From Eledone cirrhosa (taxonomy: Eukaryota): a stretch of 64,000 nt of DNA. The stretch spans positions 372,001 through 436,000 of the forward strand of contig CAXHJY010000928.1 of assembly GCA_964016885.1 (NCBI GenBank), given 5' to 3'. The translations under genes and the position numbers were made by a program. Positions 5,302-58,716 of the stretch are shown piece after piece; position 1 is the first letter of the stretch; each line of letters begins with the position of its first letter. The notes beneath the pieces were generated by a model. The model had not been told where the DNA came from. It ran no database searches and worked only from the letters and a program-made list of their open reading frames with translations.

Positions 5302-5480
5302 AACAACAACAACCACCATAATAACAATAATAGCAACACACACAACTATGACGATAGATATAATTGTTTCTACTTTTGGCACAAGGCCAGCAATTATCCC
5401 AGTGTATTACTGGTACTTTATTTTATCGACCCCGTAAGGATGAAAGGCAAAGTTGACCTCGGCGGGATTTGAACTCAGAA
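5302..5480 (-). mobile_element. tRNA-derived SINE fragment (Meta/MESC-like core)
   Basis: The minus strand has a B-box GAGTTCAAATCC followed by GAGGTCAACTTTGCCTTTCATCCTTACGGGGTCGATAAAAT and a (GTT)n-like tail. Confidence 0.7.
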
Positions 5481-10855: not shown

Positions 10856-11010
10856 GTATATGTATATATATATGTATATATAATGTAGGAGGTGAGTTTT
10901 ATTGTAGTACAATAAAGCAATGCAGATATCGGATAAGAAGCACTCTACAGTTTGTAGGACTGGAGTATACATAATATATAAGATCAAAAGATGGTTAAAA
11001 GAGTTCCATG

Positions 11011-11081
11011 TATTTTATTATGCGCATTTCAGAAACAAATATCATCATGCAATAACATTTGTATTTTCATCAGATAAAATA
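11011..11081 (-). ncRNA. Type-I hammerhead ribozyme in PLE-1 pLTR
   Basis: Minus strand: TATTTTAT CTGATGA [36-nt hairpin] GAAA TGCGCA TA ATAAAATA; 8-bp stem I, intact core, palindromic stem III. Confidence 0.85.
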
Positions 11082-11446
11082 GGAAGACATGATATGAAGG
11101 TTAAAAAACACTTGTGAATAGTGCAGTTTTAAATCAACATATGAAAAGTAGTTTTAGATTGATGTGTGATATTGGTAAAAAAATTTTATGGGGGGGGGGG
11201 GGTTGGAAAGGATGAAAAAGAGGAGGAGATGAGAGTAAAAAGTGGAGGGGGAGGAGTATAATGAGGAAGGATGAGATAGGAGGAGAGATGGGTGATAGAG
11301 AGAGAGAGATAGTTTTTATAACTGAGAAAAATATATTGTTTTACATAGAGAGGTTGAAAAACCGTTGGAAGATAATATATAAATTAAAAAAAGAATTTGA
11401 AAATTAACGAAGAGAAAAATAATGTTAAGTTAAGGTTTGTATATTG

Positions 11447-14395: not shown

Positions 14396-15019
14396 TTTTT
14401 TTTTTCTGACTTTCATGCTCATCTATTTCATCCTATCTTCTACTTTTTTCACAATACATCCTTACTTACATTACCTTTGCTATTTTTAATAATACATATC
14501 AACATTTTCTTTCAATCGCACATATTATTAAATCCTTAAATATTATTCTTAATACATATTAACATTTTCTTTCCATCGCACATATTATTAAACCCTTAAA
14601 TATTATTCTTAATACATATTAACAATTTCTTTTCATCGCACATATTATTAAACCCTTCAATATACAAACCTTAAATTAACATTATTTTTCTCTTCGTTAA
14701 TTTTCAAATTCTTTTTTTAATTTATATATTATCTTCCAACGGTTTTTCAACCTCTCTATGTAAAACAATATATTTTTCTCAGTTATAAAAACTATCTCTC
14801 TCTCTCTATCACCCATCTCTCCTATCTCATCCTTCCTCATTATACTCCTCCCCCTCCACTTTTTACTCTCATCTCCTCTTTTTCATCCTTTCCAACCTCC
14901 CCCTCCCCCCATAAATTTTGTTTTACCAATATCACACATCAATCTAAAACTACTTTTCATATGTTGATTTAAAACTGCACTATTCACAAGTGTTTTTTAA
15001 CCTTCATATCATGTCTTCC

Positions 15020-15090
15020 TATTTTATCTGATGAAAACACAAATGTTATTGCATGATGATATTTGTTTTTGAAATGCGCATAATAAAATA
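15020..15090 (+). ncRNA. Type-I hammerhead ribozyme in the inverted PLE-1 pLTR
   Basis: TATTTTAT CTGATGA AAACACAAATGTTAT..ATGATATTTGTTTTT GAAA TGCGCA TA ATAAAATA. Confidence 0.87.
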
Positions 15091-15442
15091 CATGGAACTC
15101 TTTTAACCATCTTTTGATCTTATATATTATATGTATATATATATCATCATCATCATCATCATCACCGTTTTACGTCCGTTCTTCCACGCTAGCATGGGTT
15201 AGACGGGTTGTCCTGTTGTGGGCAGTGTCTGGTCGGCTGACCATGCCTTGCTCATACAGGAACTGATCTGGCTTGATTTCTACAGCTGGATGCCCTTCCT
15301 AACACCAACCTCATTTACAGTGAGTGCTGGGTGCTTTTTCGTGGCGCCTACACGTCCACTTTACAGTGTGGGCTGGGTGCTTTTTTGCCGTGGCACCTCC
15401 ACGACCACCTTGCGGTGGGGGGGGGCATATTGTTTATATGCT

Positions 15443-18400
15443 TCAGCATGTACCCATGGGAGGTCGGGTACCCTGTATTACTGCGTGACGCCAGAAGTCA
15501 CGGTCGTGTGTCATTGACTTTGAGAGGTGTAGTTGGGTAAGGTCGGCTTTTATCACCTCATCCCAAGTCATCTTGGGTCTCCCCACTCCGCGGTTTCCAT
15601 CAACTTCTAGTGCTCTGCACCTTTTTATGCAGCTGTCATCCTTCATACGCATCACATGTCCATACCAGCGTAACCGCCTCTCCTGCACGCAGCATTTGAT
15701 TCCTCTTATGCTCAGTCTCTCTCTCAATTCATTTATGCTTTGTCGTTCACGTATATTACTGTTACACATCCATCGGAGCATGCAGGCTTCGTTTCTCTCT
15801 AATCTACGTAAGTCTTCCACCTTCAGCGCCCAGGTCTCACTACCATGCAACATCGCTGTTCGGATACACGCATCATACAGTCTGCCTTTCATTCTGAGGG
15901 AGAAGCCTTTTGCAGCTAGCAGTGGTAGTAGTTCCCTAAACTTCTTCCATCCCGTTCTTACCCTAGTTATTGTACTTTCTGAGCACCCACCTCCGTTGCT
16001 AATTCGGTCACCTAGGTAGCAGAAGCTGTCTACTGTTTCTACAGGGCCCTCCCAGAGATTGGTGGTACTTGTTTCCTGTGGCTGTTTGCTTGCTGTTTCA
16101 GCACAGCTGCTGCATGTGAATCCTACATTCTTAATTAAGCTTCCTGAGATCCCGCTACATCTCTTGTGTACCCATTGTTTGCATTTGGGGCAAAGAATGG
16201 AGTTCCTACCTACACCTTTCCTACATACTGAGCAAGGCCATTTCCCTGAGGGGATCTGGGTTCTGTTTTCTCGTCTACTTATAAGGACCTTAGTCTTTGT
16301 CATGTTGACTTTGAGGCCCTTTCTCTCTAGTCCCTGCTTCCAGGTTTGGAATTTATTCTCTAGTTCTACCATAGATTCAGCTATGAGTGCGAGGTCATCA
16401 GCATACAGGAGTTCCCATGGGCATCCGGTCTTAAACTCCTCCGTTATTGCCTGCAGGACTATGATGAACAGGAGAGGGCTAAGAACAGAGCCCTGGTGGA
16501 CCCCAACCTGTACGCTAAATTCCTCGCTATACTCATTGCCAATCCTAACTTTGCTGACTGCTCCCCTATACATGGCTTGTACCGCTTTCACAAGCCATTC
16601 ATCTACTCCTAGTTTTCTAAGAGCCCACCAGATTACTGCACGTGGAACTCTGTCAAAGGCTTTCTCAAGGTCGACAAATGCCAAGTAGAGTGGCTTACTT
16701 TTAGCTAGGTACTTTTCCTGTAATTGCCTCACAAGGAAGAGCGCATCAGTGGTGCCTTTCCCTGGAACAAACCCAAATTGCATCTCGTCTATATTCACCC
16801 GGTCCCTAATCAGCTGTGCTATAACTCTTTCTGTTACTTTCATGACCTGGTCCATCAACTTTATACCTCTATAGTTTCCTCTATCTAGTGCATCGCCTTT
16901 ACCTTTGTAGCAGTTGACAATGATGCTACTGCACCAATCTTTTGGTATGGCCCCCTCTAGTATTACCTGGTTAACGATACGTGTGGTTATAGTGTGACCT
17001 ACAGACCCAGATGCCTTCAGCATCTCGGCAGCTATACCCGATGGACCGGTTGCCTTCCCTATCTTCATATCTCTGATTGCCTTACTTACTACGCTGCCGC
17101 TGACTTGTACTGCTGGTCCCTCTATAGGGTCTACGTGGGGTAGGGTCTCTTCTTCCCATGCATTCTCCTCATTTAGTAATCTATCATAATGACTCTTCCA
17201 TGCATCTTTCTTCTCAGCACTTGTGAGGGCAAGCTCACCTTTATCATTCCGGATACACTTCTCTCCAATGACATCACAACTATCTCTGACACACTGCCTC
17301 GCAATCTTGAATACCTCCTGTTTCTGGTCCTCACGTTGTAAAACATGCTTGAATTTTCTATCCTCTGCTTCCCTCCTAGCTAAGTATACTTGTCGCCTAG
17401 CTTCCCTCTTGGTCTCTATGTAATGTACCCTGCTCCCCCCGTTCTTCCATTCTTTCCATGCCTGTCTCTTGGCCTTGACTGCTTCATCTACCTTATTGTT
17501 CCACCACCAAGTCACTCTCCTCCTGCTTGAGGTCTTTCTCCAGCCACAAACCTCATCCGTCGCCTCTAGTAAGTTATTTTTTAGGAACTCCCAGTTCTCT
17601 TCTACGTTAAATGTCTCTATCTGTTCTTCTTTACTGTCGTAGGCGTTGAGTAAAATATCTTTAAATCTGTTACTGGTTGAGGGGACTTTCAGCTTCCAGA
17701 TCTTTCTTCTCCAGGTTGGCCTCTGTTTCAGGGCTCGTCTAGTTCTGACCGTGAGGTCGCTGACAACTAAGCTATGTTGGGATGTACATTCCTCACTAGG
17801 GAAGGCTTTTGTGTTTACGACCGTCCATCTGTCACGTCCTCTGATGAGGATAAAATCTAACTGACTAGAGTGCTCCCCTGATCTATAGGTGATCAGGTGG
17901 TTGTCGGGTTTTTTAAAGTTTGTGTTACATATCGACATGTCATTGGCGTCGCAGAATTCTAGAAGTCTGAATCCTTCCTCATTCCTTGTGCCAACTCCAT
18001 GGCCTCCATGTACTCTATTGAAGCCGTCGCAGTGTTTACCTACGTGTCCGTTAAAATCTCCTGCAATGATTAGGAAGTCCTTGTCGTCTGTTAGAGCAGT
18101 AGTGTGTATTAGGGACTCGTAAAACCTATCCTTAAGTTCGTCTGGCAGCCCCGATTGGGGTGCGTAAGCTGATATTATTGTGGTAATTGTCTTATTCAGG
18201 ACTAGTCTGAGTTTAATGATTCTTGCATTTACCCTGTACACTGAGATTACTTTATCTACCCACTTGTCAGCTAATAGTATACCTACACCACCCATCCCAT
18301 CGTCATTTCCCACCCAGAAAAATTTGTAGCACTGGCTTTTTCCTACAAGGACTCTAGCAGACCCTCCTCTCCATCTAGTCTCTTGCACACAGCATACATC

Positions 18401-18562
18401 AACTTCCTTTCGCTCTAGCATTTCTACGATTTCTCCTGCTCTTCCTTTCATTGAGCCTACATTGATGGTACCAACTCGGAGTTTTGGGCATTTGTCGACA
18501 CTCGTAGGGGAGGGTCTCTGGGTTGGCGCTTCACGTGGGTGCTTGGTAGCTCGCAGATTCAT
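15443..18562 (-). CDS. RTE LINE ORF: AP endonuclease + reverse transcriptase + PHD-like Cys/His finger (1039 aa)
   Basis: TINVGS, VQETR, GDFNG, LDFIL, SQH (APE); [22 protein letters not shown] (RT); WPCSVC..CPKC..WVHKRC..CSSC; [17 protein letters not shown]-terminus. Confidence 0.95.
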   Translation of the reverse strand: MNLRATKHPREAPTQRPSPTSVDKCPKLRVGTINVGSMKGRAGEIVEMLERKEVDVCCVQETRWRGGSARVLVGKSQCYKFFWVGNDDGMGGVGILLADKWVDKVISVYRVNARIIKLRLVLNKTITTIISAYAPQSGLPDELKDRFYESLIHTTALTDDKDFLIIAGDFNGHVGKHCDGFNRVHGGHGVGTRNEEGFRLLEFCDANDMSICNTNFKKPDNHLITYRSGEHSSQLDFILIRGRDRWTVVNTKAFPSEECTSQHSLVVSDLTVRTRRALKQRPTWRRKIWKLKVPSTSNRFKDILLNAYDSKEEQIETFNVEENWEFLKNNLLEATDEVCGWRKTSSRRRVTWWWNNKVDEAVKAKRQAWKEWKNGGSRVHYIETKREARRQVYLARREAEDRKFKHVLQREDQKQEVFKIARQCVRDSCDVIGEKCIRNDKGELALTSAEKKDAWKSHYDRLLNEENAWEEETLPHVDPIEGPAVQVSGSVVSKAIRDMKIGKATGPSGIAAEMLKASGSVGHTITTRIVNQVILEGAIPKDWCSSIIVNCYKGKGDALDRGNYRGIKLMDQVMKVTERVIAQLIRDRVNIDEMQFGFVPGKGTTDALFLVRQLQEKYLAKSKPLYLAFVDLEKAFDRVPRAVIWWALRKLGVDEWLVKAVQAMYRGAVSKVRIGNEYSEEFSVQVGVHQGSVLSPLLFIIVLQAITEEFKTGCPWELLYADDLALIAESMVELENKFQTWKQGLERKGLKVNMTKTKVLISRRENRTQIPSGKWPCSVCRKGVGRNSILCPKCKQWVHKRCSGISGSLIKNVGFTCSSCAETASKQPQETSTTNLWEGPVETVDSFCYLGDRISNGGGCSESTITRVRTGWKKFRELLPLLAAKGFSLRMKGRLYDACIRTAMLHGSETWALKVEDLRRLERNEACMLRWMCNSNIRERQSINELRERLSIRGIKCCVQERRLRWYGHVMRMKDDSCIKRCRALEVDGNRGVGRPKMTWDEVIKADLTQLHLSKSMTHDRDFWRHAVIQGTRPPMGTC

Positions 18563-18806
18563 ATTTCATCTATTGATTCAGAGTTGCTCGTGTATTCCCA
18601 GCTCATCCATCCCTAACGGTGGGAAAATTGAGGGCTAGAAGGACAGTGGTGGTGGGGTAATGGCAGGGTGTGTTGGGATGCGCCAGAGGAGGAGAGAGTT
18701 AGTTAGGCAGGTAGTAGCAGCAGCAGCAGTAGAAATGGCATGCTAGGTTTGATTGGTCGAATAGACTATGGTGGTGTGTGGGGGTGGGGGGGAGGGAAAT
18801 TGTGAG

Positions 18807-40560: not shown

Positions 40561-43500
40561 TCAGGTTTTGGGCACCATGGCCCATTCGAGAAGAGAATTA
40601 CTGTTTGCGGAGACATATCCGGGTGTGGGTGGTTTGTCCGGGATTACTTGGAGGAATTTGTCCAAAGACTTCTTGAATTTTGTGTGGTCAGTTTCTGTTT
40701 TGACGTGTCCTGGTGTGATGTTGAAGAGAGCAGGGCCGATTGAGGTGAAATAATTGTGCCGTATTGTTGTTATGAGTTGCGATTTAGATTTTTGAATGGG
40801 ACGGATAGCACGGGGCCCAAGCCTTGGGTGTATCTTGAAGGCGATGCCAACATCATTTGGGCAGTGATGATGGAACATTTTCCACATCATGCAGAAAATA
40901 TAACGCTCACGGCGACGTTGGAGTGAGTAAAGTTTCAGGTTTTCTAATCGACCCCAGTAGTCAAGGTCTGACATGCCATCTATCTTTTTCGTGATTGCCC
41001 TTTGAGGAGCTTCAAGTTTCATGATACTTTGTTTCGTGTGGGGAGACCACAGTGGACAACAGTATTCAAGGTGTGGTCGGGCAAAAGTAGAGAAGAGAAG
41101 GATAATGGTGCGGGAATCTCTCGACTGGAAGGTTCTGAGGATCCAGGAACACATTCTGCGGGCCATGTCAACTTTGCTGCTTATATGCGTGGTCCAGCTT
41201 ATGTTGCTGTCCACGGTTACTCCCAAGTCTCTGATGTTGTTAGATGCCACGAGAGTTTCCCCGGAGGGAAGGGAGTACGGGAGTTTCAGAGCATCCTCTT
41301 TTCCAAAGTGGATCAGTTCGAATTTGTCTTCGTTCAGTAACATGTTGTTCTTTTCTGCCCATTGGGTAACAGCCAGTAGGTCTGACTGAAGGCTTATCCG
41401 GTCATCCACGCCATTGATGACCTTTTGGAGCTTGGAATCATCAGCGAAAATTTTAATGTTGCTGTGTTTGATGATGTCAGTGATGTCATTAATATAGATG
41501 ATGAAGAGAAGTGGGCCCAACACAGTGCCTTGTGGGACCCCACTACTGACTTTGGCTGGGCTTGATTTGACTCCCTCAACTACAACATGTTGGGTTCTGT
41601 TTGACAGGAAGCTCTTGATCCACTGCAGCAGCTTTCCAGTGACACCAATATTGGACAGCTTTCTCAGTAGAATCTTATGATCAACCCTGTCAAAGGCCTT
41701 GCTGAAATCAAGGTAGATAACATCAGTGTTGGAACCCTCTCCCAAGGCTCTCAAAATGTCATCAAAGTGATGCAGTAGCTGCGTCAGGCAATCCCTTCCA
41801 TTACGGAATCCATGCTGGTTGGAGTTCAGCATATTGTTACTCTCAAGGAAGTGGGTCATTCGCGATCTCACCACTCTCTCAAATACCTTAATGATATGAG
41901 AGGTGAGTGAGATTGGACGGTAATTCACGGCAAGGGATTTGTTTCCCTTTTTGAAAACTGGGACAACAGACTGGGATAGAAGGTTTTCTGGCACATATCC
42001 AGCATCCAGTGAGTTCCGCCACAGATTGGCAAGAGGAGATGCAAGTTGGTGTTGACACGCCTTCAAGACACAAGCAGGGAACCTATCGGGACCTACTGCT
42101 GAATTATGCTTGATTTCCTTTATTGCCGCCAAGACATCAGGGGCGCCAAACGTTATGTCCGATAAGGTGTAATGGGGAGTAACATCGCCGATACAGCCCA
42201 GATCGGCCATATCAGGATTGCTGAAAACAGAGCAGTATTGTTTCTGCAGTATCTCACCCATGGTTATAGCATTGTCTTGAAGAGTGCCATTTTCATCAAT
42301 TAGAGGGCCAACAGTAGAGCCAGTGATTTTGTGTTTTTTTGCAAATGAAAAGAACACTTTGGGATTGAGTTTGATCTTCTCAATGGCCCAGGCCTCTTCA
42401 GCTCTTCTCTGATTGTTGATGAGGGACATTATGTTGTTTTGGAGGTTATGTTTTTTAATCTCTAGTGATGAAATGGCAGTCAAGTTGATGTGTTGCTGCT
42501 GACAGTATTTCAGCTTGTTGATTTTTTTGTTCGTTGTCTTAATTTTTCTGATGAGCGTTTTTCTATTTCTAGGGATTCTGCTCTTAGATTTGTTTATAGT
42601 TCTTAATGGGGTGTGTTTAGCACATATGTTTGTAACAGTGTCCACAAATGTCTGCCAGGACTTTTTGATGTTAGTGGGTGTATGAGTGTGCGTGAAGGAC
42701 CAGTCGACATGTGCAAGATCATGACTGATCGCTTCCCAGTTTGCATTGTGGAAATCCATAGCGTCAAACGGATGGACAGGAGAGATGACATTGGGTTTGT
42801 ATATTGGACGGTGGAATCTCAGATCACAGAGAACCATGTCATGATCAGAGAGTAGAGTTTTCTCCACTACAATATTGTGGATATTGTCAGTGTGATTGCT
42901 GAAAATTAAGTCTAGGACGTTTTTGTGGCACCTCGTTGGTTCTAGCACCAGTTGGGATAGGAAGAAATCATCCATGAAGTCAAGAAGCGATTCCACAGCT
43001 TCCCTGTCAGAGGTTGAGGCAGAAGAACCTGGTGGCAGGCTGTTTGTGGACCAGTCAACTCCGGGGAGGTTGAAGTCCCCCATCATTAAGATGTTGTCAG
43101 GGTGACACTCTTGGATGAAACACTTTATGCTGTTGAGGCATTCCTTGAAGCATGGTACAGGCGTTTGGGGTGGCCTATAGAGCCCAACTACTAATAGGTT
43201 GTTGGTTTGACTGAATACAGTGACTGCTTCACAGTATCCATTAGTGAATATGTTCATAGCCTCTGTTGAGAAAGAATTATGGACATAAATGGCAGTTCCG
43301 CCCTTTCTTCTGCCAGCGCGATCAGCACAGATGGCTTTGAAATTTTTCACTTTCACCTCGGCTTCCAAGTGGAGGTTACTGAGATGGGTTTCAGTGAGGA
43401 CGAAGAAAGGGATGTGGTTTGGATGGACATCAATCCAGTCCTCCAGGAATTTGATCTTCCATTTTTGAGTATTGGTGGAAGGGCTGATGCCTTGGGCGTT

Positions 43501-43581
43501 AAGCAAAAATGTAGAAGCGAGAGTGGATGGTTTTAATTGTTTTGGTGTGTTGTTAATTTGTTTGTTTGTTAATGGCAGCAA
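40561..43581 (-). CDS. CR1-group ORF2: AP endonuclease + reverse transcriptase (1006 aa)
   Basis: LNAQG, LTETHL, LYRPP, MGDFN, LDLIF, SDH; [25 protein letters not shown]; RPHLEYC..W.P; uninterrupted. Confidence 0.95.
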
Positions 43582-44333
43582 TGGGAGTTTGTGCAGTGGG
43601 GTGATAGTGGAGGGTGGTGCTGGGTGATAGCTCGAATGTTTTTTTCCAGTTCTTTTGCCAGATTCATTATGGCTAAAAAAGAGGAAGGAGTTTCCTGTTT
43701 AGAAGACTGTTGGTGACTGTGGTAGTGGTTATTTTTATGTAGGTTATGGTTTTTGTTTTTGCTTTTATTTTTAATTTTATTTTCATTTGTCCGACGGGTC
43801 CCCGGGAGATGGGTAAAGGGACAATCCCGGTCTAAACACAATCTGTCTCGCAGGGAAAAGCGGCAGATTTGTGGATTCCTTGTTTGAGTTATTGGTGGTT
43901 GTGTTGGTGTTAAATTAGAGTATGTATTATGGTGGTGGCTGTTTGTGGGGATAGATCGTTTTGTCCTAGGTAAATGGGTGAATTTGCAGCCACTATCCGT
44001 ACATATTCTATAGCGTAGAGAGTAGCGGCAAATGATGGGGTTTCGAGTGGGTGGGTATGTGGGTGTGTGTGTTGTGAGAGGTGTAGATGATGGTTTGGGT
44101 AGGATTTGACGACCTTTGTGGACTGTGGGAGGGAGAGTTCTTGTTCTGGTATTAGAAGGTAAATTCCTTGACATAGCAGTAGACAAAAATGTTGTAGTAG
44201 TAGTAGTAGTAGTAGGCAGAGATGTTGGCAGTGGTGATGATTGGACTGCTGGGCCAGAGAAAGGATGTGGCGTTTCATGCTGTGAGACAGAGGCTACTGG
44301 GGGGTCAATAGTTTCATTTAGTAGATCGGCCAT
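43569..44333 (-). CDS. LINE ORF1 with two CCCH zinc fingers (254 aa)
   Basis: [19 protein letters not shown] and [19 protein letters not shown]; overlaps the ORF2 start by 13 nt. Confidence 0.8.
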
Positions 44334-44496: not shown

Positions 44497-45587
<1,091 letters not shown>

Positions 45588-45992
45588 AAGCCGACCTTAC
45601 CCAACTACACCTCTCAAAGTCAATGACACACGACCGTGACTTCTGGCGTCACGCAGTAATACAGGGTACCCGACCTCCCATGGGTACATGCTGAAGCATA
45701 TGAACAATATGCCCCCCCCCCCCCACCGCAAGGTGGTCGTGGAGGTGCCACGGCAAAAAAGCACCCAGCCCACACTGTAAAGTGGACGTGTAGGCGCCAC
45801 GAAAAAGCACCCAGCACTCACTGTAAATGAGGTTGGTGTTAGGAAGGGCATCCAGCTGTAGAAATCAAGCCAGATCAGTTCCTGTATGAGCAAGGCATGG
45901 TCAGCCGACCAGACACTGCACACAACAGGACAACACGTCTAACCCATGCTAGCGTGGAAGAACGGACGTAAAACGGTGATGATGATGATGAT
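45588..45992 (+). mobile_element. RTE-A 3' end fragment
   Basis: Near-identical reverse complement of 15144-15552. Confidence 0.92.
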
Positions 45993-46038
45993 ATATATAT
46001 ATATATGTATGTATGTATATATATCTATGTATATATAA

Positions 46039-46098
<60 letters not shown>

Positions 46099-46127
46099 AT
46101 ATATATGTATGTATATATATATGTATG

Positions 46128-46167
<40 letters not shown>

Positions 46168-46207
46168 TGTATCTATGTATATATATATATATCTATGTAT
46201 ATATATG

Positions 46208-46270
<63 letters not shown>

Positions 46271-46451
46271 ATATATATATCTATGTGTATGTATGTATAT
46301 ATATATATCTATGTGTATGTATGTATATATATATATCTATGTGTATGTATGTATATATATATATCTATGTGTATGTATGTATATATATATATCTATGTGT
46401 ATGTATGTATATATATATATCTATGTATATATATGTATATATATATACATG

Positions 46452-46483
<32 letters not shown>

Positions 46484-46547
46484 TATCTATGTATATATAT
46501 GTATGTATATATATATATCTATGTATATATATGTATATATATATATG

Positions 46548-46601
<54 letters not shown>

Positions 46602-46786
46602 GATAAATCTACCAAGAGTTTACGGTAGTGTCCAATCCGTATGAAGAACTCAATGTATTCCGGATATCATGGGAAGAAGAGATGTAATGAAAATCCACTT
46701 TCGGTGAAAGATAAACGGTATACAGAGTCAAGATAAAATATTAAACAAATAATGAACAAACAATTCCTTATATTAAACAAAAAAAG

Positions 46787-46941
46787 TTCACTATTTAACG
46801 ATCGTTTCTAGGGTATATATGTGTTATAATTGGTATGCATATTCAACAGATCTATGTACAAAATTATACAAAATTATACAAATTATCAAGATTAAATATA
46901 CATACCTAACACATATATACGCCGTCTTCAGAAATAATGAA
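46787..46941 (-). ncRNA. Long-stem-II hammerhead, inverted copy
   Basis: Reverse complement of 49799-49953. Confidence 0.75.
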
Positions 46942-47760
46942 GTATATTTATTGATAATAACAACAATTCAAAATATCAGTTCAAAATTGACCAATGAAAA
47001 CACAAAGGGTTAAAAGCAGTTTGGTGTGTGTATATACATGTAAAATCCTTACACATATTTTACAATAATGTGTGTATAATTTGTATGTGCATACTAAAAA
47101 GATGGATGCAAACACAAAATTTCAAGGTTAAAATCTCTGTAAGCTTAATGCGCTGATAAGATGCGCAATGATACTTATGGAGTCAAGCATATAAATATAT
47201 TTTTTTCATACTCACACATATCAGTATAATCACACATACATGCGCGTATATGCATAAATATACACATAACCACGAACATACAAACACACACACTCCCCCA
47301 CTCACATTTATATATGTGGATATAAAATCATAAGCAAATAGAAATTAAGTCACTCACATAAAACACTGGCACACACATTTCAAGATCAAGATACAGAAAT
47401 TAGGTGGGAGGGGGGGGGGGAGGGGTCAGTATTAGATTGTCAGAGCAGACTGCCTAATATAAATGTATCTATAAATTAAGAAAAATAAAAAAATAAAAAC
47501 AATAAAATATAATAAATATAATATAATGTACATACACATACAGATATACATACACATACATACATGTAAGCGCACATAGAGATATTTACGCATACACACA
47601 TACGTATACAGTCATACACACACATACACTTACACGAACATACACATACACATATAAAAAGATATATATACACACACACACACACGCGCAACACATACAC
47701 ACATACACATATATATAAAAAATAGATAATAAAGATATATATCCATATATATATATATAT

Positions 47761-47819
<59 letters not shown>

Positions 47820-47908
47820 TATACACATACATACCCATACATCTAAATATACATACACATACATACACACATACATGTATATACATGTACATACATATAC
47901 GCACATCG

Positions 47909-47961
<53 letters not shown>

Positions 47962-48298
47962 CACTCACATAGACATAAAGATACATACACACACAACTTA
48001 CATACACACGCATATATATATATATATATATACATAGATGTACCTTCATACATAGAATTAGATATATAATCATACATACATATGCACCTACTTATACTCA
48101 TATAAATAAATACATACGCTTCCATATATGTGTATACACATAAAAAACAATACCACCTCACCAAACTCAGACATACAAATGAAAATAATAATAAAAAAAC
48201 GCATATGTATATACATACACACACGCATTAATAGAGATATATATATATACACACATACATACACACACATATATATACATACACACACATATATACAT

Positions 48299-48377
<79 letters not shown>

Positions 48378-48384
48378 TAGACTC

Positions 48385-48415
<31 letters not shown>

Positions 48416-48775
48416 AACATATATATCCACACACTCATACCACCATAAATACACATACAAACACCCACATGTATATATATATATATATATATATCCACAT
48501 CTCTATTAATGCGTGTGTGTATGTATATACATATGCGTTTTTTTATTATTATTTTCATTTGTATGTCTGAGTTTGGTGAGGTGGTATTGTTTTTTATGTG
48601 TATACACATATATGGAAGCGTATGTATTTATTTATATGAGTATAAGTAGGTGCATATGTATGTATGATTATATATCTAATTCTATGTATGAAGGTACATC
48701 TATGTATATATATATATATATATATGCGTGTGTATGTAAGTTGTGTGTGTATGTATCTTTATGTCTATGTGAGTG

Positions 48776-48826
<51 letters not shown>

Positions 48827-48915
48827 CGATGTGCGTATATGTATGTACATGTATATACATGTATGTGTGTATGTATGTGTATGTATATTTAGATGTATGG
48901 GTATGTATGTGTATA

Positions 48916-48990
<75 letters not shown>

Positions 48991-49798
48991 GGATATATAT
49001 CTTTATTATCTATTTTTTATATATATGTGTATGTGTGTATGTGTTGCGCGTGTGTGTGTGTGTGTATATATATCTTTTTATATGTGTATGTGTATGTTCG
49101 TGTAAGTGTATGTGTGTGTATGACTGTATACGTATGTGTGTATGTGTGTATGCGTAAATATCTCTATGTGCGCTTACATGTATGTATGTGTATGTATATC
49201 TGTATGTGTATGTACATTATATTATATTTATTATATTTTATTGTTTTTATTTTTTTATTTTTCTTAATTTATAGATACATTTATATTAGGCAGTCTGCTC
49301 TGACAATCTAATACTGACCCCTCCCCCCCCTCCCACCTAATTTCTGTATCTTGATCTTGAAATGTGTGTGCCAGTGTTTTATGTGAGTGACTTAATTTCT
49401 ATTTGCTTATGATTTTATATCCACATATATAAATGTGAGTGGGGGAGTGTGTGTGTTTGTATGTTCGTGGTTATGTGTATATTTATGCATATACGCGCAT
49501 GTATGTGTGATTATACTGATATGTGTGAGTATGAAAAAAATATATTTATATGCTTGACTCCATAAGTATCATTGCGCATCTTATCAGCGCATTAAGCTTA
49601 CAGAGATTTTAACCTTGAAATTTTGTGTTTGCATCCATCTTTTTAGTATGCACATACAAATTATACACACATTATTGTAAAATATGTGTAAGGATTTTAC
49701 ATGTATATACACACACCAAACTGCTTTTAACCCTTTGTGTTTTCATTGGTCAATTTTGAACTGATATTTTGAATTGTTGTTATTATCAATAAATATAC

Positions 49799-49953
49799 TT
49801 CATTATTTCTGAAGACGGCGTATATATGTGTTAGGTATGTATATTTAATCTTGATAATTTGTATAATTTTGTATAATTTTGTACATAGATCTGTTGAATA
49901 TGCATACCAATTATAACACATATATACCCTAGAAACGATCGTTAAATAGTGAA
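49799..49953 (+). ncRNA. Type-I hammerhead with a ~116-nt stem II
   Basis: TTCATTATTT CTGAAGA [116-nt hairpin] GAAA CGATCG TT AAATAGTGAA; 10-bp stem I, palindromic stem III. Confidence 0.78.
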
Positions 49954-50296
49954 CTTTTTTTGTTTAATATAAGGAATTGTTTGTTCATTATTTGTTTAAT
50001 ATTTTATCTTGACTCTGTATACCGTTTATCTTTCACCGAAAGTGGATTTTCATTACATCTCTTCTTCCCATGATATCCGGAATACATTGAGTTCTTCATA
50101 CGGATTGGACACTACCGTAAACTCTTGGTAGATTTATCTACATAATTTTGCTCCTATTTTCACGGAAATATTCGTATTTTTGTACTGTATGTGTGTATTA
50201 ATTTTATATTTATGTATAAACATATATATATGTATGATTTTGTAAACCCATATACATTTAGTTGAGCTCTTTCAATTGTCCATCATCCATATCAAA

Positions 50297-52738
50297 ATGG
50301 AAAAACAATATTTAGGAACCTCCTTAAAAAACATACCAATACCTTCTAAGGACGACTTCTTACTCCTTATGATTCAGAAAACTAATAATTTTATCAGAAG
50401 GGTTAGATGGAGAGCCTACCACTTCGATAGAAAATCTAAACAAGCAGATCGGAAATATATGTATGATTTCAATACTTACAAGAATCCACCACACAACTTT
50501 TTACTTGAAGACTTCGAGAAAGACCTTTTTAATTTAATTAAACACCTCAAATTTAAAAAGTATAAATCCGTCTTTCAAAAGGACCTTGATTCTACCCTAT
50601 TGGACCTAAAAAAGTCTAAAAAAATCCATGTCCACTCGGACAAAACTGGTAACTTGTATCATATGGATATTGAACATTATAATGAGTTCATATATAAAGA
50701 ACTCAGAAAAAATTATAAAAAATCTAATAATGTGTCACTCACCAACATCAACAACAAAACACACAACATAGTAAAAAAACTAAATATTGAAGATAGAACT
50801 GAACCTTTGGCATTGAAAAGACCACACTTCAACCTGAAAGATCACAAATCTAACTTTAACTCTAATCCTTCTATTAGACTTATATGTCCCTCCAAATCAG
50901 ATATTGGAATAATTAGCAAAAAAATTTTAGATAGAGTCATCCCACAAATAAGAAAATACGTTATTTTACCACTCTGGGAAAACACCTCCCAGGTAATTAA
51001 TTGGTTTAAAAATATTAGGTGTAAATCTTCTGCTTCTTTCCTACAATTTGATATAGATAATTACTATTCTTCTATATCACCCATACTCCTGAACAAAGCA
51101 TTAATATTTGCTAAAAATAGATCTAATTTAACTTCGGATGACATTAACATTATTACACATGCTAGACAAACACTTATTGAATTTCAGAATGAATACTGGA
51201 CCAGAAACACATACAGTAATCTTTTTGATATTACTATGGGTTCAAGCGATTCCGCCCAAATTACTGATCTTGTGGGCCTCTTTCTCCTTTTCAACATAAA
51301 TGCCTCTTTTCCCCACCTCAAAGGTGGTTTATATCGTGATGACTGTCTTCTTCTTTCTAACAACCTTAGCCTTTCAGAAATCGAAAAAAACAAAAAGCAT
51401 ATTAGAACTTTCCTTAAAGACTATTATAATCTTAATATTACTTTTGAAAAAACAAGTAAAGTAGTAAATTTCCTAGATATAACTTTAGATTTAGCTACGG
51501 GTATATACCAACCTTACCATAAACCTAACCAAAACTTACATTACATACACTCACAATCTAATCACCCTAAATCTATCCTTAAAAACCTTGCATATAATAT
51601 ATCACTTAGAATTTCTAACCTTTCTTCTAACCAAGATGTATTTGATAAAAATGCGACCTTTTATAATGAAGCTCTAGATAGAAGTGGCCACAAAAATAGA
51701 TTAGAGTATATACCTTCTACTAAAAATACTGAAAGCATACAGCATAATATTACCAACAAACACCAAATGAAAAGTACACACCTAAATGCCACCCACAATA
51801 TACCCCAAAATACTAAATCTTCTAATATAAAGTATAGTAACCCTCAAAAAACTACTCATCATACAACTATAATAAATATTAATAATAAAACTCCTAATAA
51901 AAAAGATAAAACACCTAAATCTACAAATATAACTAAAAATAGTTGTGGTGAGATCATTAACATTAATCCTCCTAGTAAAAATCATGATACAACATATAAA
52001 AATAATAAAAATAATAAACAACATAGAAACCGTAATAGACGAGTTACTTGGTATAATGCTCCTTTTAATTTACAAGTTAAGGATAATATTGCTAAAAAAA
52101 TTTTTTATATCCTTGAGAAAAACTTCCCGCCAAACCACAAATACCATCAAATCTTAAATAGGTCTACAGTTAAATTCTCATACTCTACAACAAATAACAT
52201 AAAACAAAATATAAGTGCATATAATGCATATAAATGTAAGAAAACCATAAGTATACCACCAGTACATCAAATTAACAATAATATCTCCTCAAATACAGAA
52301 TTAACGAAAGGATGTAACTGTAGAAACAAAACAAACTGCCCATTAAAAGGGAATTGTCTTGTTAACAACATAGTCTATAAATGTAATGTTAAAACTAAAG
52401 ATTCTATTTGCTCATATATAGGAGCTACCTCTAACAATTTTAAGACAAGATATAATACCCACAAACATAGCTTTAAAAATGCCGCACTGGCTAATACAAC
52501 ATCTCTAGCAGAAAAAATCAATAGTTATAAAAATAAAAATATAAAATATGATTTGACCTGGAGTGTGCTCAAAAGAGCCACCCCTTATCAAAATAATAGA
52601 AAGGAATGTAGATTATGTTCCCAAGAACTATTTGAAATAATGAAGTCTAAGGATATCTTATTAAATAAACGACAGGAATTAATTATATCGTGTAATCATA
52701 AACTAAAAAAAACATTTAAATATTATAAACCTAATTAA
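50297..52738 (+). CDS. PLE-2 reverse transcriptase + C-terminal GIY-YIG endonuclease (813 aa from the first ATG)
   Basis: SLKNIPIP, HSDKTG, QFDIDNYYSSI, DITMG, GLYRDD, VNFLDITLD, CNC..CPL..C linker, IVYKC..YIGATS, C.LC..E; no stops. Confidence 0.94.
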   Translation: MEKQYLGTSLKNIPIPSKDDFLLLMIQKTNNFIRRVRWRAYHFDRKSKQADRKYMYDFNTYKNPPHNFLLEDFEKDLFNLIKHLKFKKYKSVFQKDLDSTLLDLKKSKKIHVHSDKTGNLYHMDIEHYNEFIYKELRKNYKKSNNVSLTNINNKTHNIVKKLNIEDRTEPLALKRPHFNLKDHKSNFNSNPSIRLICPSKSDIGIISKKILDRVIPQIRKYVILPLWENTSQVINWFKNIRCKSSASFLQFDIDNYYSSISPILLNKALIFAKNRSNLTSDDINIITHARQTLIEFQNEYWTRNTYSNLFDITMGSSDSAQITDLVGLFLLFNINASFPHLKGGLYRDDCLLLSNNLSLSEIEKNKKHIRTFLKDYYNLNITFEKTSKVVNFLDITLDLATGIYQPYHKPNQNLHYIHSQSNHPKSILKNLAYNISLRISNLSSNQDVFDKNATFYNEALDRSGHKNRLEYIPSTKNTESIQHNITNKHQMKSTHLNATHNIPQNTKSSNIKYSNPQKTTHHTTIININNKTPNKKDKTPKSTNITKNSCGEIININPPSKNHDTTYKNNKNNKQHRNRNRRVTWYNAPFNLQVKDNIAKKIFYILEKNFPPNHKYHQILNRSTVKFSYSTTNNIKQNISAYNAYKCKKTISIPPVHQINNNISSNTELTKGCNCRNKTNCPLKGNCLVNNIVYKCNVKTKDSICSYIGATSNNFKTRYNTHKHSFKNAALANTTSLAEKINSYKNKNIKYDLTWSVLKRATPYQNNRKECRLCSQELFEIMKSKDILLNKRQELIISCNHKLKKTFKYYKPN

Positions 52739-54470
52739 TAACATTATTCTAGAAATTAATTTAATTTAAATGTTAGTTAACCTATAAATTTAATTTAATT
52801 AATATTTTATTACAGATGAGAAAATATTATGTAATCATAAATTTTGAAAAACCTTTAAATATTACTAATATATACTCAGTAATTTAATTTATAGATTAAT
52901 TTTAATTTATTTTAATTTATTTAAACCTTTTTATTATAATTCTTTTACAGATAAAATATAACAAAATAATATCATGTATCCAATGACGGAGAAAGAATTT
53001 TTAGTATTATAGACCTAATTAATATACATTTTGGAAATATATTTATTATTTGGTTTTAGTTTTAATCAACCTAAAACTTTAATTTTAATTTGCTTAAAAT
53101 TAGTATCCTTGTACAGACGAATTGCAGAATGTCATGTAATCATAGAATGGGATGTGTTTTGGATATATACCTAGTTAATATATTCTGTGCAATTTTTTGA
53201 AAAAGATATGTATATGTATATGTATATGTATATGTGTGTGTTGTGTATGTGTATCTGTATGTATATTTATGTGTGTATATATGTATATGTGTGTATATAT
53301 ATGTATATATATATATATATATGTGTGTATATGTATGTATATGTGTATGTGTATGTATATGTATATGTATGCGTATTAATTTTGATTTTTATTTGCATAT
53401 AATTATATTATGCTATTGATGAAATACAATATCTGCTTTATGTATTGTATACCTAATTAACATATACTAATTAACGTATACTATTGAAATAAATATATAA
53501 TTTTTAATTTAGTTAACATATAATTTATATGCTACTACCGATGTAATACTTTATTTTATTTTTATTTGGGTTTCTTTTCCCTATTACTAAATTCATCTCC
53601 TAATATTGATACCATAACGTTATTAACTTTAATTTAGTTATAATGTAATTAATAATCTACTACTGTTTGACTTCATAATTCTGCTTCAAATATTATAAAC
53701 CTAACTAATTTACACCTTAGAAATCAATACTATCTTTGGTTTAGTTAACATATGATTAATGGTATACTTATTTATTTTGAGATGCATAGATTTCGTATTT
53801 CTTAGCACTGAAAATATGTAAGAACATACATTGAATTAAGATACGGAAAATATTATATGTTTCTTGAAACATATATTTACTTTGATCCCCTTCTCCAAAC
53901 CCCCCCTTTCCCCCATACTATTATCATCTGTATTTGTAAGCGTATATGTATGAATGTATATGTAGGTAGGTGTCTATATAGGTTTTGGTATTTATTTCTA
54001 AATATAAAAATACATATATGAGCATGTAAATATGAATGTAAGATTGAGTGTGTATATATGATTGTACATACATATGTATGTATATATATGTATATATATG
54101 TATATTATATATGTATGTGTATGTGAATGTGTGGTATATATATGTGTATGTATATGTATATATGTGTATGTATGTGTATGCTTGTATACAGGAATATATA
54201 TATGTGTATATATGTATGTATATGTATAAGCGTGTATGTATGTATGTGTATATGTGTTGTGTATATATTTGTATGTCTCTCTATTTATATGTTTATCTTC
54301 GTATCTATGTGATATATGTGTGTGTGTGTGCACGTATGCATATGTATGTGTTTGTGTGTGTTTGTATGTGTGTGTGTATATATGTGTATGTGCGCACACT
54401 CACATACACACATATATATATATATATATATGTGAGTGTGTATGTGTGTCTGTGTGTGTGTGTGTGTGTG

Positions 54471-54522
<52 letters not shown>

Positions 54523-54523
54523 G

Positions 54524-54554
<31 letters not shown>

Positions 54555-54644
54555 GGTGTCTATGTGTGAATATATGTCTTTATTCGTATGTGTGTATTTA
54601 TATATGTATATATTTATGTGTATGTATGTATGTGTATGTATGTA

Positions 54645-54705
<61 letters not shown>

Positions 54706-54991
54706 TATTCTTTATTATTATTGTAATATAACTTATGTGTATATGTGTATAAGTGAGGTTGTGTATGTATATATACTATGTGTATATATAAGAGTAATGA
54801 AAAATATATATATATATATGTATATGTGCATGTCTGTTTTTTATGTGTGTGTATATATATATATGTATGTGTATATGTGTATATATATATATGTGTACGT
54901 GTGTGTATGTGGATATATATATATATATATATATACATGTGGGTGTTTGTATGTGTATTTATGGTGGTATGAGTGTGTGGATATATATGTT

Positions 54992-55022
<31 letters not shown>

Positions 55023-55029
55023 GAGTCTA

Positions 55030-55090
<61 letters not shown>

Positions 55091-55427
55091 ATGTATATAT
55101 GTGTGTGTATGTATATATATGTGTGTGTATGTATGTGTGTATATATATATATCTCTATTAATGCGTGTGTGTATGTATATACATATGCGTTTTTTTATTA
55201 TTATTTTCATTTGTATGTCTGAGTTTGGTGAGGTGGTATTGTTTTTTATGTGTATACACATATATGGAAGCGTATGTATTTATTTATATGAGTATAAGTA
55301 GGTGCATATGTATGTATGATTATATATCTAATTCTATGTATGAAGGTACATCTATGTATATATATATATATATATATGCGTGTGTATGTAAGTTGTGTGT
55401 GTATGTATCTTTATGTCTATGTGAGTG

Positions 55428-55478
<51 letters not shown>

Positions 55479-55567
55479 CGATGTGCGTATATGTATGTAC
55501 ATGTATATACATGTATGTGTGTATGTATGTGTATGTATATTTAGATGTATGGGTATGTATGTGTATA

Positions 55568-55630
<63 letters not shown>

Positions 55631-56454
55631 ATATATATATATATATGGATATATATCTTTATTATCTATTTTTTATATATATGTGTATGTGTGTATGTGT
55701 TGCGCGTGTGTGTGTGTGTGTATATATATCTTTTTATATGTGTATGTGTATGTTCGTGTAAGTGTATGTGTGTGTATGACTGTATACGTATGTGTGTATG
55801 TGTGTATGCGTAAATATCTCTATGTGCGCTTACATGTATGTATGTGTATGTATATCTGTATGTGTATGTACATTATATTATATTTATTATATTTTATTGT
55901 TTTTATTTTTTTATTTTTCTTAATTTATAGATACATTTATATTAGGCAGTCTGCTCTGACAATCTAATACTGACCCCTCCCCCCCCTCCCACCTAATTTC
56001 TGTATCTTGATCTTGAAATGTGTGTGCCAGTGTTTTATGTGAGTGACTTAATTTCTATTTGCTTATGATTTTATATCCACATATATAAATGTGAGTGGGG
56101 GAGTGTGTGTGTTTGTATGTTCGTGGTTATGTGTATATTTATGCATATACGCGCATGTATGTGTGATTATACTGATATGTGTGAGTATGAAAAAAATATA
56201 TTTATATGCTTGACTCCATAAGTATCATTGCGCATCTTATCAGCGCATTAAGCTTACAGAGATTTTAACCTTGAAATTTTGTGTTTGCATCCATCTTTTT
56301 AGTATGCACATACAAATTATACACACATTATTGTAAAATATGTGTAAGGATTTTACATGTATATACACACACCAAACTGCTTTTAACCCTTTGTGTTTTC
56401 ATTGGTCAATTTTGAACTGATATTTTGAATTGTTGTTATTATCAATAAATATAC

Positions 56455-56609
56455 TTCATTATTTCTGAAGACGGCGTATATATGTGTTAGGTATGTATAT
56501 TTAATCTTGATAATTTGTATAATTTTGTATAATTTTGTACATAGATCTGTTGAATATGCATACCAATTATAACACATATATACCCTAGAAACGATCGTTA
56601 AATAGTGAA
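56455..56609 (+). ncRNA. Long-stem-II hammerhead, 3' pLTR copy
   Basis: Direct copy of 49799-49953, 6656 nt downstream. Confidence 0.78.
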
Positions 56610-56741
56610 CTTTTTTTGTTTAATATAAGGAATTGTTTGTTCATTATTTGTTTAATATTTTATATATATATATATATATGTATGTATGCATATATATATA
56701 TATATATATGTATGTATATATATATATATATGTATATATAT

Positions 56742-58716
56742 TTAAGATTAAAAGATGGTTAAATGAGTTCCATGTATTTTATTATGCGCATTTCAAAAAC
56801 AAATATCATCATGCAATAACATTTGTGTTTTTATCAGATAAAACAGGAAGACATGATATGAAGTTTAAAAACACTTGTGGATAGTGCAGTTTTAAATCAA
56901 CATATGAAAAGTAGTTTTAGATTGATGTGTGATATTGGGGAAACAAATTTTTTGAGGGGCGGGGGAGGTTGGAAAGGATGAAAAAGAAGAGGAGATGAGA
57001 GTAAAAAGTGGAGGAGGAGGAGTATAATGAGGAAGGATGAGATAGGAGGAGGGATGGCTGATAGAGAGAGAGAGAGATAGCTTTTATAACTGAGAAAAAT
57101 ATATTGTTTTACATAGAGAGGTTGAAAAACCATTGGAAGATAATGTATAAATTAAAAGAATTTGAAAATTAACGAAGAGAAAAATAATGTAAAGTTAAGG
57201 TTTGTATATTGAAGGGTTTAATAATATGTGCGATGGAAAGAAAATGTTAATATGTATTAAGAATAATTTTAAGGGTTTAATAATATGTGCGATTGAAAGA
57301 AAATGTTGATCTGTATTATTAAAAAAACAAAAGTAATGTAAGTAAGGATATATTGTGAGATGAGCATGGATAAGTTAGATGAAAGTGAGAAAAAAATAAT
57401 GAATAGAGGATGAATAATCTAACGTCAAAAAAAATGTTTATGTTTACGAAGGATTTTTTCAAGGTGATATAAAGTAAGAATATATTGTATTGTGTAATAA
57501 TTGTTTCTATGTTAGGCACAGTGAGAAAAGGTACAGATTAGGGGTTAGAAGTTAAAAGAAAAGAAAAGGAAGAAAGGGAAGTGATGAATAGGAATGATAT
57601 AGAATATGATAAATAACTTTGAAATAAGGTAGAAAGATGGGTATATTTTTAAAGAAGTATATATATATATATATATATGTCCCTTTGAGAAAAGGATTTT
57701 GAATTGATAAAGTTTAGGATATTAGCTGTATACTTTATGGAAAGTTCTGTGGAATGTATGCAAGCACATAGAAAACAAGTCAGTGCTTCTATTATAGAAT
57801 CTAAATTAGATATAATGGTAAATTTTTCATACAGACAGAGATTGCAAGTCTTGGATAGAGAACTGTTCAAGTATAAAGAAGCAGAGGAAACCTTTTCCCA
57901 ATAGATGTTATATTTAATATTTTTGTCTTTCAAGGACCATATGAGTTCTGAGAGAGCCGTGTTGGTTCTTTTAAGTTTATATTTAAAAGACGAATGATGA
58001 TTATAAAGACGAGCTTTAAAGGAGGTGGAAGTGGAGCCAAAATAGGTGAAGGAATTGGTGTCAGTTATAACTTTACATTCGTAAATTATGTTTTTATCAA
58101 GACAATGGTTGTTGAGAGGACATTTATTTTTAGCAGGGCAATTGCAATTGCGATTAGAGAGATTATTAACGAGTGACCTAGTGTTATCTATAGAAGGAAT
58201 TGGATTGGAGAAGTTATTTGCGATAGGAATAATAGTTTCTTGATTTAGAATGGGATTAAGAACATTTAGCGAAGTTGTGTTTGACGTTGTATTTGGGTTT
58301 GCAGAAATTAGCCTAGGGTTTACAATGACGTCGGGAGTACTATTACTATTATTATGATATTCAGTGTTGGAAGGAAGAGATTTAGTATTTAGTATTTTAT
58401 TGTTGTGTTTAGAGATAATGTTGGAAATGTTGGAGGATGTCGAATAGGAAAATATTATAGTGTGTTTGTTAAATATTTTACTATAGATATGTGAGGGAGG
58501 TAAGCATTTATTTAAGGCACTAAAGAATAATTTAGGAATATTATTATTAATAGAGATGGAGAAAGGAGCATTATACCAGATTATGTTTTTGTATCTAGGT
58601 CTTTTATTAAAGTTATTGGAATGATCATGATTAATTATTCTACTGTAAGATTTTCTAGAATTTGTTTCTTTATTATATTTGATTTTATCAGGATAGCCGG
58701 CTTTGGAAAGCGCGTT
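56742..58716 (-). mobile_element. Second PLE-1 copy, 5'-truncated (GIY-YIG end plus pLTR)
   Basis: ORF 57649-58818 from NALSKAGY onward matches 12054-13045; the pLTR matches ~10980-12000. Confidence 0.92.
56775..56845 (-). ncRNA. Mutated PLE-1 hammerhead (CTGATAA core)
   Basis: Same fold as 11011-11081 with G8 changed to A. Confidence 0.68.

Follow-up and report, generated by a model that had tools for sequence, protein, structure and literature searches.

A Hydra-type element and its hammerhead motif

The window, that is, the whole stretch of 64,000 nucleotides of Eledone cirrhosa DNA that was analyzed, contains a Penelope-like element (PLE) whose whole insertion runs from 46596 to 56663 and is flanked by (TA)n tracts. 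An inverted terminal repeat and two direct pLTRs accompany its ORF, and self-alignment shows that all three repeats carry the same 155-nt type I hammerhead motif, identical at 49799-49953 (+), 56455-56609 (+) and 46787-46941 (-). The features are as follows.

46596-48500 (-): inverted terminal-repeat copy, 5'-truncated, on the 5' side of the insertion (self-alignment and flank reading)
46787-46941 (-): copy of the hammerhead within the inverted repeat, with the same sequence as 49799-49953
48470-50007 (+): 5' direct pLTR, 99% identical to 55124-56663
49788-49793 (+): AATAAA, possible poly(A) signal, in all subfamilies read
49799-49808 (+): stem I 5' arm; one position varies U-A/U-G/C-G across copies
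49802 (+): putative capped transcription start at the A in TCA, 7 nt upstream of the core, and the most common 5' end among truncated copies
49809-49815 (+): 5' half of the catalytic core, CUGAAGA (DNA: CTGAAGA)
49816-49931 (+): enlarged stem II, 116 nt, with C.A, G-U, G-C and C.C at its base
49932-49935 (+): GAAA
49932-49943 (+): GAAA through U17, ending in a GUU triplet with U17 at 49943; predicted cut after 49943
49935-49942 (+): stem III, a perfect 8-nt palindrome
49944-49953 (+): stem I 3' arm, pairing with 49799-49808
49983-49993 (+): repeat of the stem I 5' arm, which by prediction would pair with the 3' arm and keep the active fold from forming
50007 (+; 56663 in the 3' pLTR): first 3' end site, putative reverse-transcription start, used in 17/31 copies
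50112-50144 (+): second 3' end site, about 50141-50144, with a small hairpin at 50112-50131
50297-52738 (+): intact ORF of 813 aa, Hydra-clade RT with a C-terminal GIY-YIG-type endonuclease
55124-56663 (+): 3' direct pLTR, stopping in (TA)n
56455-56609 (+): hammerhead copy in the 3' pLTR (self-alignment)

An earlier, sequence-only reading of this DNA had described the parts of the motif, and all of them lie where it placed them, with the direct copies (49799 and 56455, both +) 6656 nt apart. It had also called the element young and intact, which agrees with the genome search: 21 of the best 40 hits to a 351-nt query, from 1,580 candidates, tie at the top score with 100% identity, and the 813-aa ORF is intact. 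The inverted repeat (46596-48500, -) stops in (TA)n at the equivalent of 50144, the second 3' end site. The insertion reads seamlessly from 3'UTR through hammerhead to ORF, and 3' of the ORF lies a long microsatellite-rich region before the second direct repeat. The AATAAA is found 9-14 nt upstream of the putative transcription start, and its copy in the 3' repeat could direct polyadenylation within the hammerhead.

By its motifs, the element is a member of the Hydra clade, for which a C-terminal EN+, an RWK-type motif, DKT, CxCX5C, CxxC, CxH and (TA)n targets have been described (PMC8557442). Its single ORF encodes an RT plus, at the C-terminus, a GIY-YIG-type endonuclease, and the translation has the RWK-type motif as RWR at 37-39, DKT in place of DKG at 113-115, YRDD and IVY..YIG. 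It also has CNCRNKTNC (the CxCX5C linker), CRLC (CxxC) and CNH (CxH), and no CCHH. The insertion in (TA)n and the pLTRs with an inverted 5' copy fit the same clade. Only the size differs, which is a descriptive rather than a defining feature (generally <3 kb): the unit here is 6656 nt, because of the long microsatellite-rich 3' region. The Naiad clade was rejected as an identity, since the endonuclease is C-terminal and the Hydra motifs are present. A Pfam search of the 813-aa ORF returned 0 families.

The motif has CUGANGA, GAAA and UH in type I order, with three helices around this core: stems I and II covary, stem III is an invariant palindrome, and rival folds compete with them. Stem I has 10 bp, including one G-U, and stem II (49816-49931) consists of two long helices with a 5-nt bulge on the 3' side and a tip with three tandem repeats of about 10 nt. 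The predicted fold has an energy of -48.2 kcal/mol (z -6.7), and 0/200 shuffles were equally stable. We regard it as a predicted self-cutting RNA motif. With a C.A at the base of stem II and U at position 17, slower cutting is expected. Rfam gave no hammerhead at E<=10 within 49750-50200, nor within 45500-58000 among the 150 of 220 matches listed, as anticipated by the claim that the enlarged form would escape length-limited searches. The label "split-core" that came with this claim fits less well; the arm is long, but the wording is overstated, as stem II splits the core of every hammerhead.

Conservation of the core

For the core we searched the genome with the downstream flank alone, so that copies were chosen without regard to the core, and obtained 15,207 matches against 18 for the control. 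Among the first 100 rows, 94 span the 3' core; by eye, 89 of these have an intact GAAA-stem III and 5 carry private changes. Variants shared by subfamilies occur in these rows at position 17, in stem I and in stem II, and none falls in the 3' half of the core; the two CpGs in stem III are likewise free of them. At the first 30 loci, with 31 distinct copies, CUGANGA is intact in 27/31 and GAAA-stem III in 28/31. These sequences indicate that the core is under selection.

It is conceivable that the motif cuts no more and that core and stems are retained as a structure for protein binding or promoter function. A C.A replaces the usual G10.1-C11.1, the young subfamily has U17, stable off folds are predicted (see below), and inserted copies show nearly no trace of cutting. 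We nevertheless consider this doubtful, because the catalytic positions, CpGs included, all lack shared variants and unrelated families in the genome keep the same core with other arms. Moreover, in the published Hydra-clade hammerheads listed in File S2 of PMC8557442, mismatches at the base of stem II are common and 10/25 families have U17, and an axolotl hammerhead has a U.U mismatch at this base (PMC7229834).

Conservation and covariation of the long arm

The pattern core-N100..130-GAAA-stem III has 10,876 genome matches compared to 13 for the reversed pattern. A pattern with a shorter spacer gave a further 1,398 matches compared to 13, which by eye are mostly relatives with 95-99-nt arms. 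Every subfamily of the lineage retains an arm of 95-126 nt, with compensatory changes. In 71 distinct copies, the base of stem II is always C.A (U-A in 3), followed by a variable pair (A-U, G-U or G-C), a G-C, the C.C and then the helix. The C.A and C.C, which had been listed as a caveat, are therefore real and are conserved features rather than decay. A register with G10.1-C11.1 and a 2-nt insert was rejected on the basis of the A-U/G-U/G-C variation at position 2. Helix I is open, and the conserved C.C at position 4 is a candidate, and only that, for a tertiary contact between helices I and II.

Covariation was scored in 23 copies hand-picked from the 71 distinct ones to span the subfamilies. 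In this set, 93.3% of the cells are paired and in 8/46 pairs both partners have changed (basal helix 4, upper helix 2, stem I 2). The covariation score is higher than in all 500 shuffles and all slid controls, although kinship among sequences inflates such shuffle tests even without structure, and the count of changed pairs alone is matched by 17/500 shuffles. Consensus folding of the copies failed to find stems I and III. The basal helix of the most divergent subfamily has been rewritten as G-C pairs, and the same lineage is present, with changes that keep the pairs, in contigs under two other organism labels from two studies. The core and the stem II pairing are thus both kept among family members, and the claim of a PLE hammerhead with an enlarged stem II conserved across a lineage has held up. 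Older subfamilies carry a single repeat unit at the tip and younger ones 2 to 4, so the arm has grown from about 100 to 126 nt; it looks as if the tip extends by 10-nt duplication and is less constrained.

Ten ORFs adjoining long-arm motifs, with 62-100% identity, form one clade (100/95) in a tree built from in-genome copies and unnamed homologues, without named Hydra references, in which three labels were assigned by proximity alone and one (L219) is likely to be mistaken. Other Hydra-type lineages of the same genome have arms of 26-43, 35-37 or about 50 nt, and the 26-43-nt and 35-37-nt families share with the long-arm motif a base geometry of three pairs followed by C.Y. A descriptor scan of 1.04 Mb of enriched, partly overlapping DNA gave 310 hits compared to 0 in the reversed control, and arm lengths are graded from 14 to 126 nt within this one genome. 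At the loci read, no ORF could be linked to the families with 58-83-nt arms. A foreign, MITE-like hairpin that landed in a small hammerhead and has been carried neutrally would be in keeping with arms that are AT-rich, partly simple-repeat and without an Rfam match. We think this very improbable, as both helices show compensatory changes, the arm is retained across ORFs down to 62% identity, the base geometry is common to the 26-43-nt and 35-37-nt families, and the arm lengths are graded.

The window and the loci read contain several related elements. A sister Hydra-type family with a 36-nt stem II is present at 15014-15100 (+), 11000-11090 (-) and about 56780-56860 (-); its palindrome differs, position 4 of its stem II is a C.U mismatch, and its ORF (12054-14396, -) shows about 37-43% identity. 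A family whose 49-51-nt stem II has C.A at its base and whose palindromic stem III measures 10 nt is found at window position 2207 (+) and at loci L015, L031 and L037. More families, with 20-83-nt arms, occur at loci L083, L098, L104, L108 and L119-L122, and several of them have a stem III palindrome identical to that of the long-arm element; none of these families could be tied to an ORF. A broken PLE of another clade lies at 5444-7897 (+), and at locus L122 a hammerhead with a 14-nt arm adjoins a relative of it. The window also holds two long intact LINE-type ORFs of 1040 and 1045 aa (15443-18565 and 40561-43698, both -), with many decayed copies around.

Ends of inserted copies

Of 31 copies, 17 end on the 3' side at 50007, 13 near 50144 or elsewhere, and 1 reads on. 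Inserted copies retain the scissile bond, and their termini lie 64 or about 200 nt past the cut site, so the templates were uncut or religated. The word TTTATCT is present at both end sites (50001-50009 and 50112-50144), with a 5-bp hairpin ahead of the second, and the sites are about 137 nt apart, compared to the usual PLE tail of 30-40 nt. In the young subfamily, a search that is blind to junctions whose next base matches by chance gave 2 copies that start at the cut site or no more than 3 nt away from it, and both are fold-backs and ambiguous within an A run. In the core-free search with the downstream flank, 0/100 rows start there. The proposal that cutting at both direct copies releases a 6656-nt unit is therefore unsupported as the main route.

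Core-bearing copies lack upstream sequence in 12/27 cases, and 5' ends are concentrated within the 5' arm of stem I. Among 100 rows, counted by eye, 53 end at -7, 34 at -1 to -6, 10 at -8 to -11 and 1 near -21, while 2 run on; these rows were chosen by the absence of the normal base 46 nt upstream, with palindrome arms counted twice, and they give the distribution of ends, not their share among copies. Many 5'-truncated copies are head-to-head palindromes, a known PLE structure (PMC3846280). Older subfamilies have 2,208 matches for an end at -7, and about 30/100 rows are SINE insertions. The SINE is tRNA-like, reaches about 185 nt and has inserted independently at the site equivalent to 49802. 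All 7/7 loci read (L167, L171-L175 and L190) are such insertions, with target duplications of differing length; the SINE 3' tail matches its target, and a free SINE copy is present at window 5360-5543. Template jumps were rejected as the source of the constant sequence upstream of -7, because the 7/7 loci are SINE insertions in intact pLTRs, and such rows were therefore left out of the count that follows.

A G precedes the -7 base in 13/44 non-SINE junctions, compared to 13/124 at the next three places (p=4e-4), a count that takes in fold-back junctions, where the base may be templated. In L1 work, an untemplated G has been read as a copied cap (PMC9341517). In raw DNA reads of another study, coverage steps up at 49802 and down after 50144. 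From the ends piled up at -7 with an extra G, and by analogy with D. virilis Penelope, we infer that a capped transcript starts at 49802 from an internal promoter and is copied uncut. By eye, the 36-nt-arm sister family has no equally sharp pile-up of 5' ends. A DPE-like word 28 nt after the putative start is found in the most divergent subfamily only (L063, L111 and L113) and not in young ones.

The pile-up may have another origin, while the selected hammerhead and the uncut template would stand: an endonuclease cut at ATT, or an enzyme stop where the hairpin closes. The anole PLE enzyme prefers ATT (PMC11167929), the predicted off fold closes exactly at -7, and the site is hit repeatedly by the SINE and therefore may be a DNA-level cutting hot spot. 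The G excess just before the end, the TCA initiator-like context and the sharp edge, with few ends past -7, speak against it, and we see this other origin as possible, though not probable.

Predicted folding of the motif

For an RNA running from -7 to 64 nt past the cut, the predicted probability of stem I was 0.00 in 13/13 representatives, and 6-12 kcal/mol would be needed to reach the active fold. When the motif was trimmed to its full 10-bp stem I, this probability was 0.84-0.92 in 9/13 representatives; with 30 nt of upstream sequence it was 0.00 in the window copy and 0-0.76 across the 13. As the window copy is predicted to be off with 30 nt upstream, any on state would be transient, dimeric or protein assisted. 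In the off fold, the strand that ends in GAAA takes up the 5' end and CUG in pairs, and the 3' arm pairs with the repeat at 49983-49993, which is present in all subfamilies read; this duplex has -11.1 kcal/mol, compared to -6.6 for stem I. The programs leave out the tertiary contacts of the core and the cotranscriptional order of folding. The extra helix had been suggested to be an RT-binding or a regulatory domain, and these models favor the regulatory reading.

Palindromic stems III of PLE hammerheads had been described as able to act in dimers, and for the motif here a dimer is predicted to be favored once the flanks are trimmed. The predicted homodimer of the palindrome has -10.0 kcal/mol, and with trimmed flanks the active dimer gains 12.4 kcal/mol over a pair of monomers. 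Natural flanks turn this into a deficit of 3.3 kcal/mol (-113.5 compared to -116.8 for two monomers), and the free co-fold reaches -129.4. These numbers bear on the model of Cervera and de la Pena 2014 (PMC4209133), in which both direct copies would cut as an intramolecular dimer and the 6656-nt unit would be circularized, with RT on the circle giving a seamless tandem of more than one unit. The trimmed dimer, the seamless 3'UTR-hammerhead-ORF insertion and the selection on the core are in line with it, and because ligation restores the scissile bond, it requires no copies that start at the cut site. On the other hand, many copies end at -7 with a cap-like G, ends that a circle cannot yield, linear cut RNA is hardly ever inserted, and the active dimer loses to monomers and co-fold once the natural flanks are included. 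We consider this route unlikely.

Proposed mechanism

We propose, with a probability of about one half, that a capped RNA starting 7 nt before the core folds with the ribozyme off and is reverse-transcribed uncut, and that cutting is a conditional gate on read-through RNA. Transcription would start at 49802 from the internal promoter. With only 7 nt of the 5' arm present, the core would fold back to pair with stem II's 3' strand, and the repeat at 49983-49993 would capture the 3' arm of stem I. The enzyme would then start at 50007 or 50144, or at their 3' equivalents, and copy through the uncut motif. A stop at the cap with fold-back would give the short palindromic inserts; alternatively, a jump within the 206-nt stretch common to both RNA ends would rebuild the tandem. 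Only RNA coming from upstream would have the full 10-bp stem I and could cut, be it in the short time until the competitor has been transcribed, in dimeric form, or aided by the protein of the element. The folding models lend such an on state for read-through RNA weak support. Throughout, the long arm may hold the two core halves together in either fold. A bolder version, a speculation that we hold to be unlikely, is that the capped RNA opens with a 140-nt hammerhead switch that senses the point at which transcription began, off in the correctly initiated RNA that serves as transposition template and on in read-through RNA with its full stem I, with the 100-nt arm as a refolding platform for the element's own protein.

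The role of hammerheads in PLEs could be reduced to a few assays on one 206-nt RNA. This young family provides insertion junctions by the thousand, from which the RNA template can be read: its 5' end lies inside stem I, its 3' start sites lie past the cut site, and ends at the cut site are nearly absent. The family also shows that natural hammerheads can have, and keep over evolution, arms of 100 nt or longer, and length-limited descriptors therefore undercount them. The undercount would extend to PLE clades reported with only "half cores" (PMC8557442).

Comparison with known systems

In the literature searched, which covers papers without Lunse et al. 2017, no hammerhead of a PLE or other natural hammerhead has a long stem II; longer variants may be listed in the supplements to Cervera 2014 and to the Terminon work. 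The part consulted of preprint 10.64898/2026.07.22.740005 has nothing on arm length. The rodent Clec2 hammerhead has a type III fold, with the insert in the loop of stem I. Like the motif here, the discontinuous Clec2 hammerhead is a natural one that a long insert breaks up and that compact descriptors overlook; unlike it, Clec2 lies in a host mRNA 3' UTR, and its insert of several hundred nt is not a covarying stem II helix (PMC6765202).

Among PLEs, the closest likeness is to the Hydra clade as described by Craig et al. 2021 (PMC8557442), which has the same protein motifs, (TA)n targets, a type I hammerhead near the 3' end, often a mismatch where stem II begins, and either U or A at position 17. 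The core spacers listed there are 12-26 nt in 25 Hydra-clade families and 48-54 nt in two spike-moss PLE-X elements, compared to 95-126 nt here; the middle arm is about four times longer than in described relatives. The perfect 8-nt palindrome and the 6.7-kb unit, compared to usually <3 kb, also set this element apart. The minimal PLE hammerheads of Cervera and de la Pena 2014 (PMC4209133) are likewise of type I, located in pLTRs and provided with a short, palindromic, dimer-suited helix III. Their helix II has 6-8 bp where the element here has a 116-nt arm, and they have G10.1-C11.1 with an extra base after A9, whereas here a C.A stands in register.

Drosophila virilis Penelope (Schostak et al. 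2008, PMC2377424) also starts inside its pLTR, from a TATA-less internal promoter upstream of the hammerhead; its intron ends at helix I (PMC4209133), whereas the start proposed here lies inside helix I. Anolis Poseidon (Frangieh et al. 2024, PMC11167929) shares the two RT start sites downstream of the hammerhead and the uncut template. It belongs to another clade, with a small stem II that overlaps the ORF start, while here about 137 nt separate the sites and the ORF begins 350 nt downstream. In that study, the anole hammerhead cuts only with protein, insertion does not depend on it, and RNA-seq reads ending at its site are absent. Taken together, the motif would work as other PLE hammerheads do and departs from the minimal description at helix II and at the 10.1-11.1 pair.
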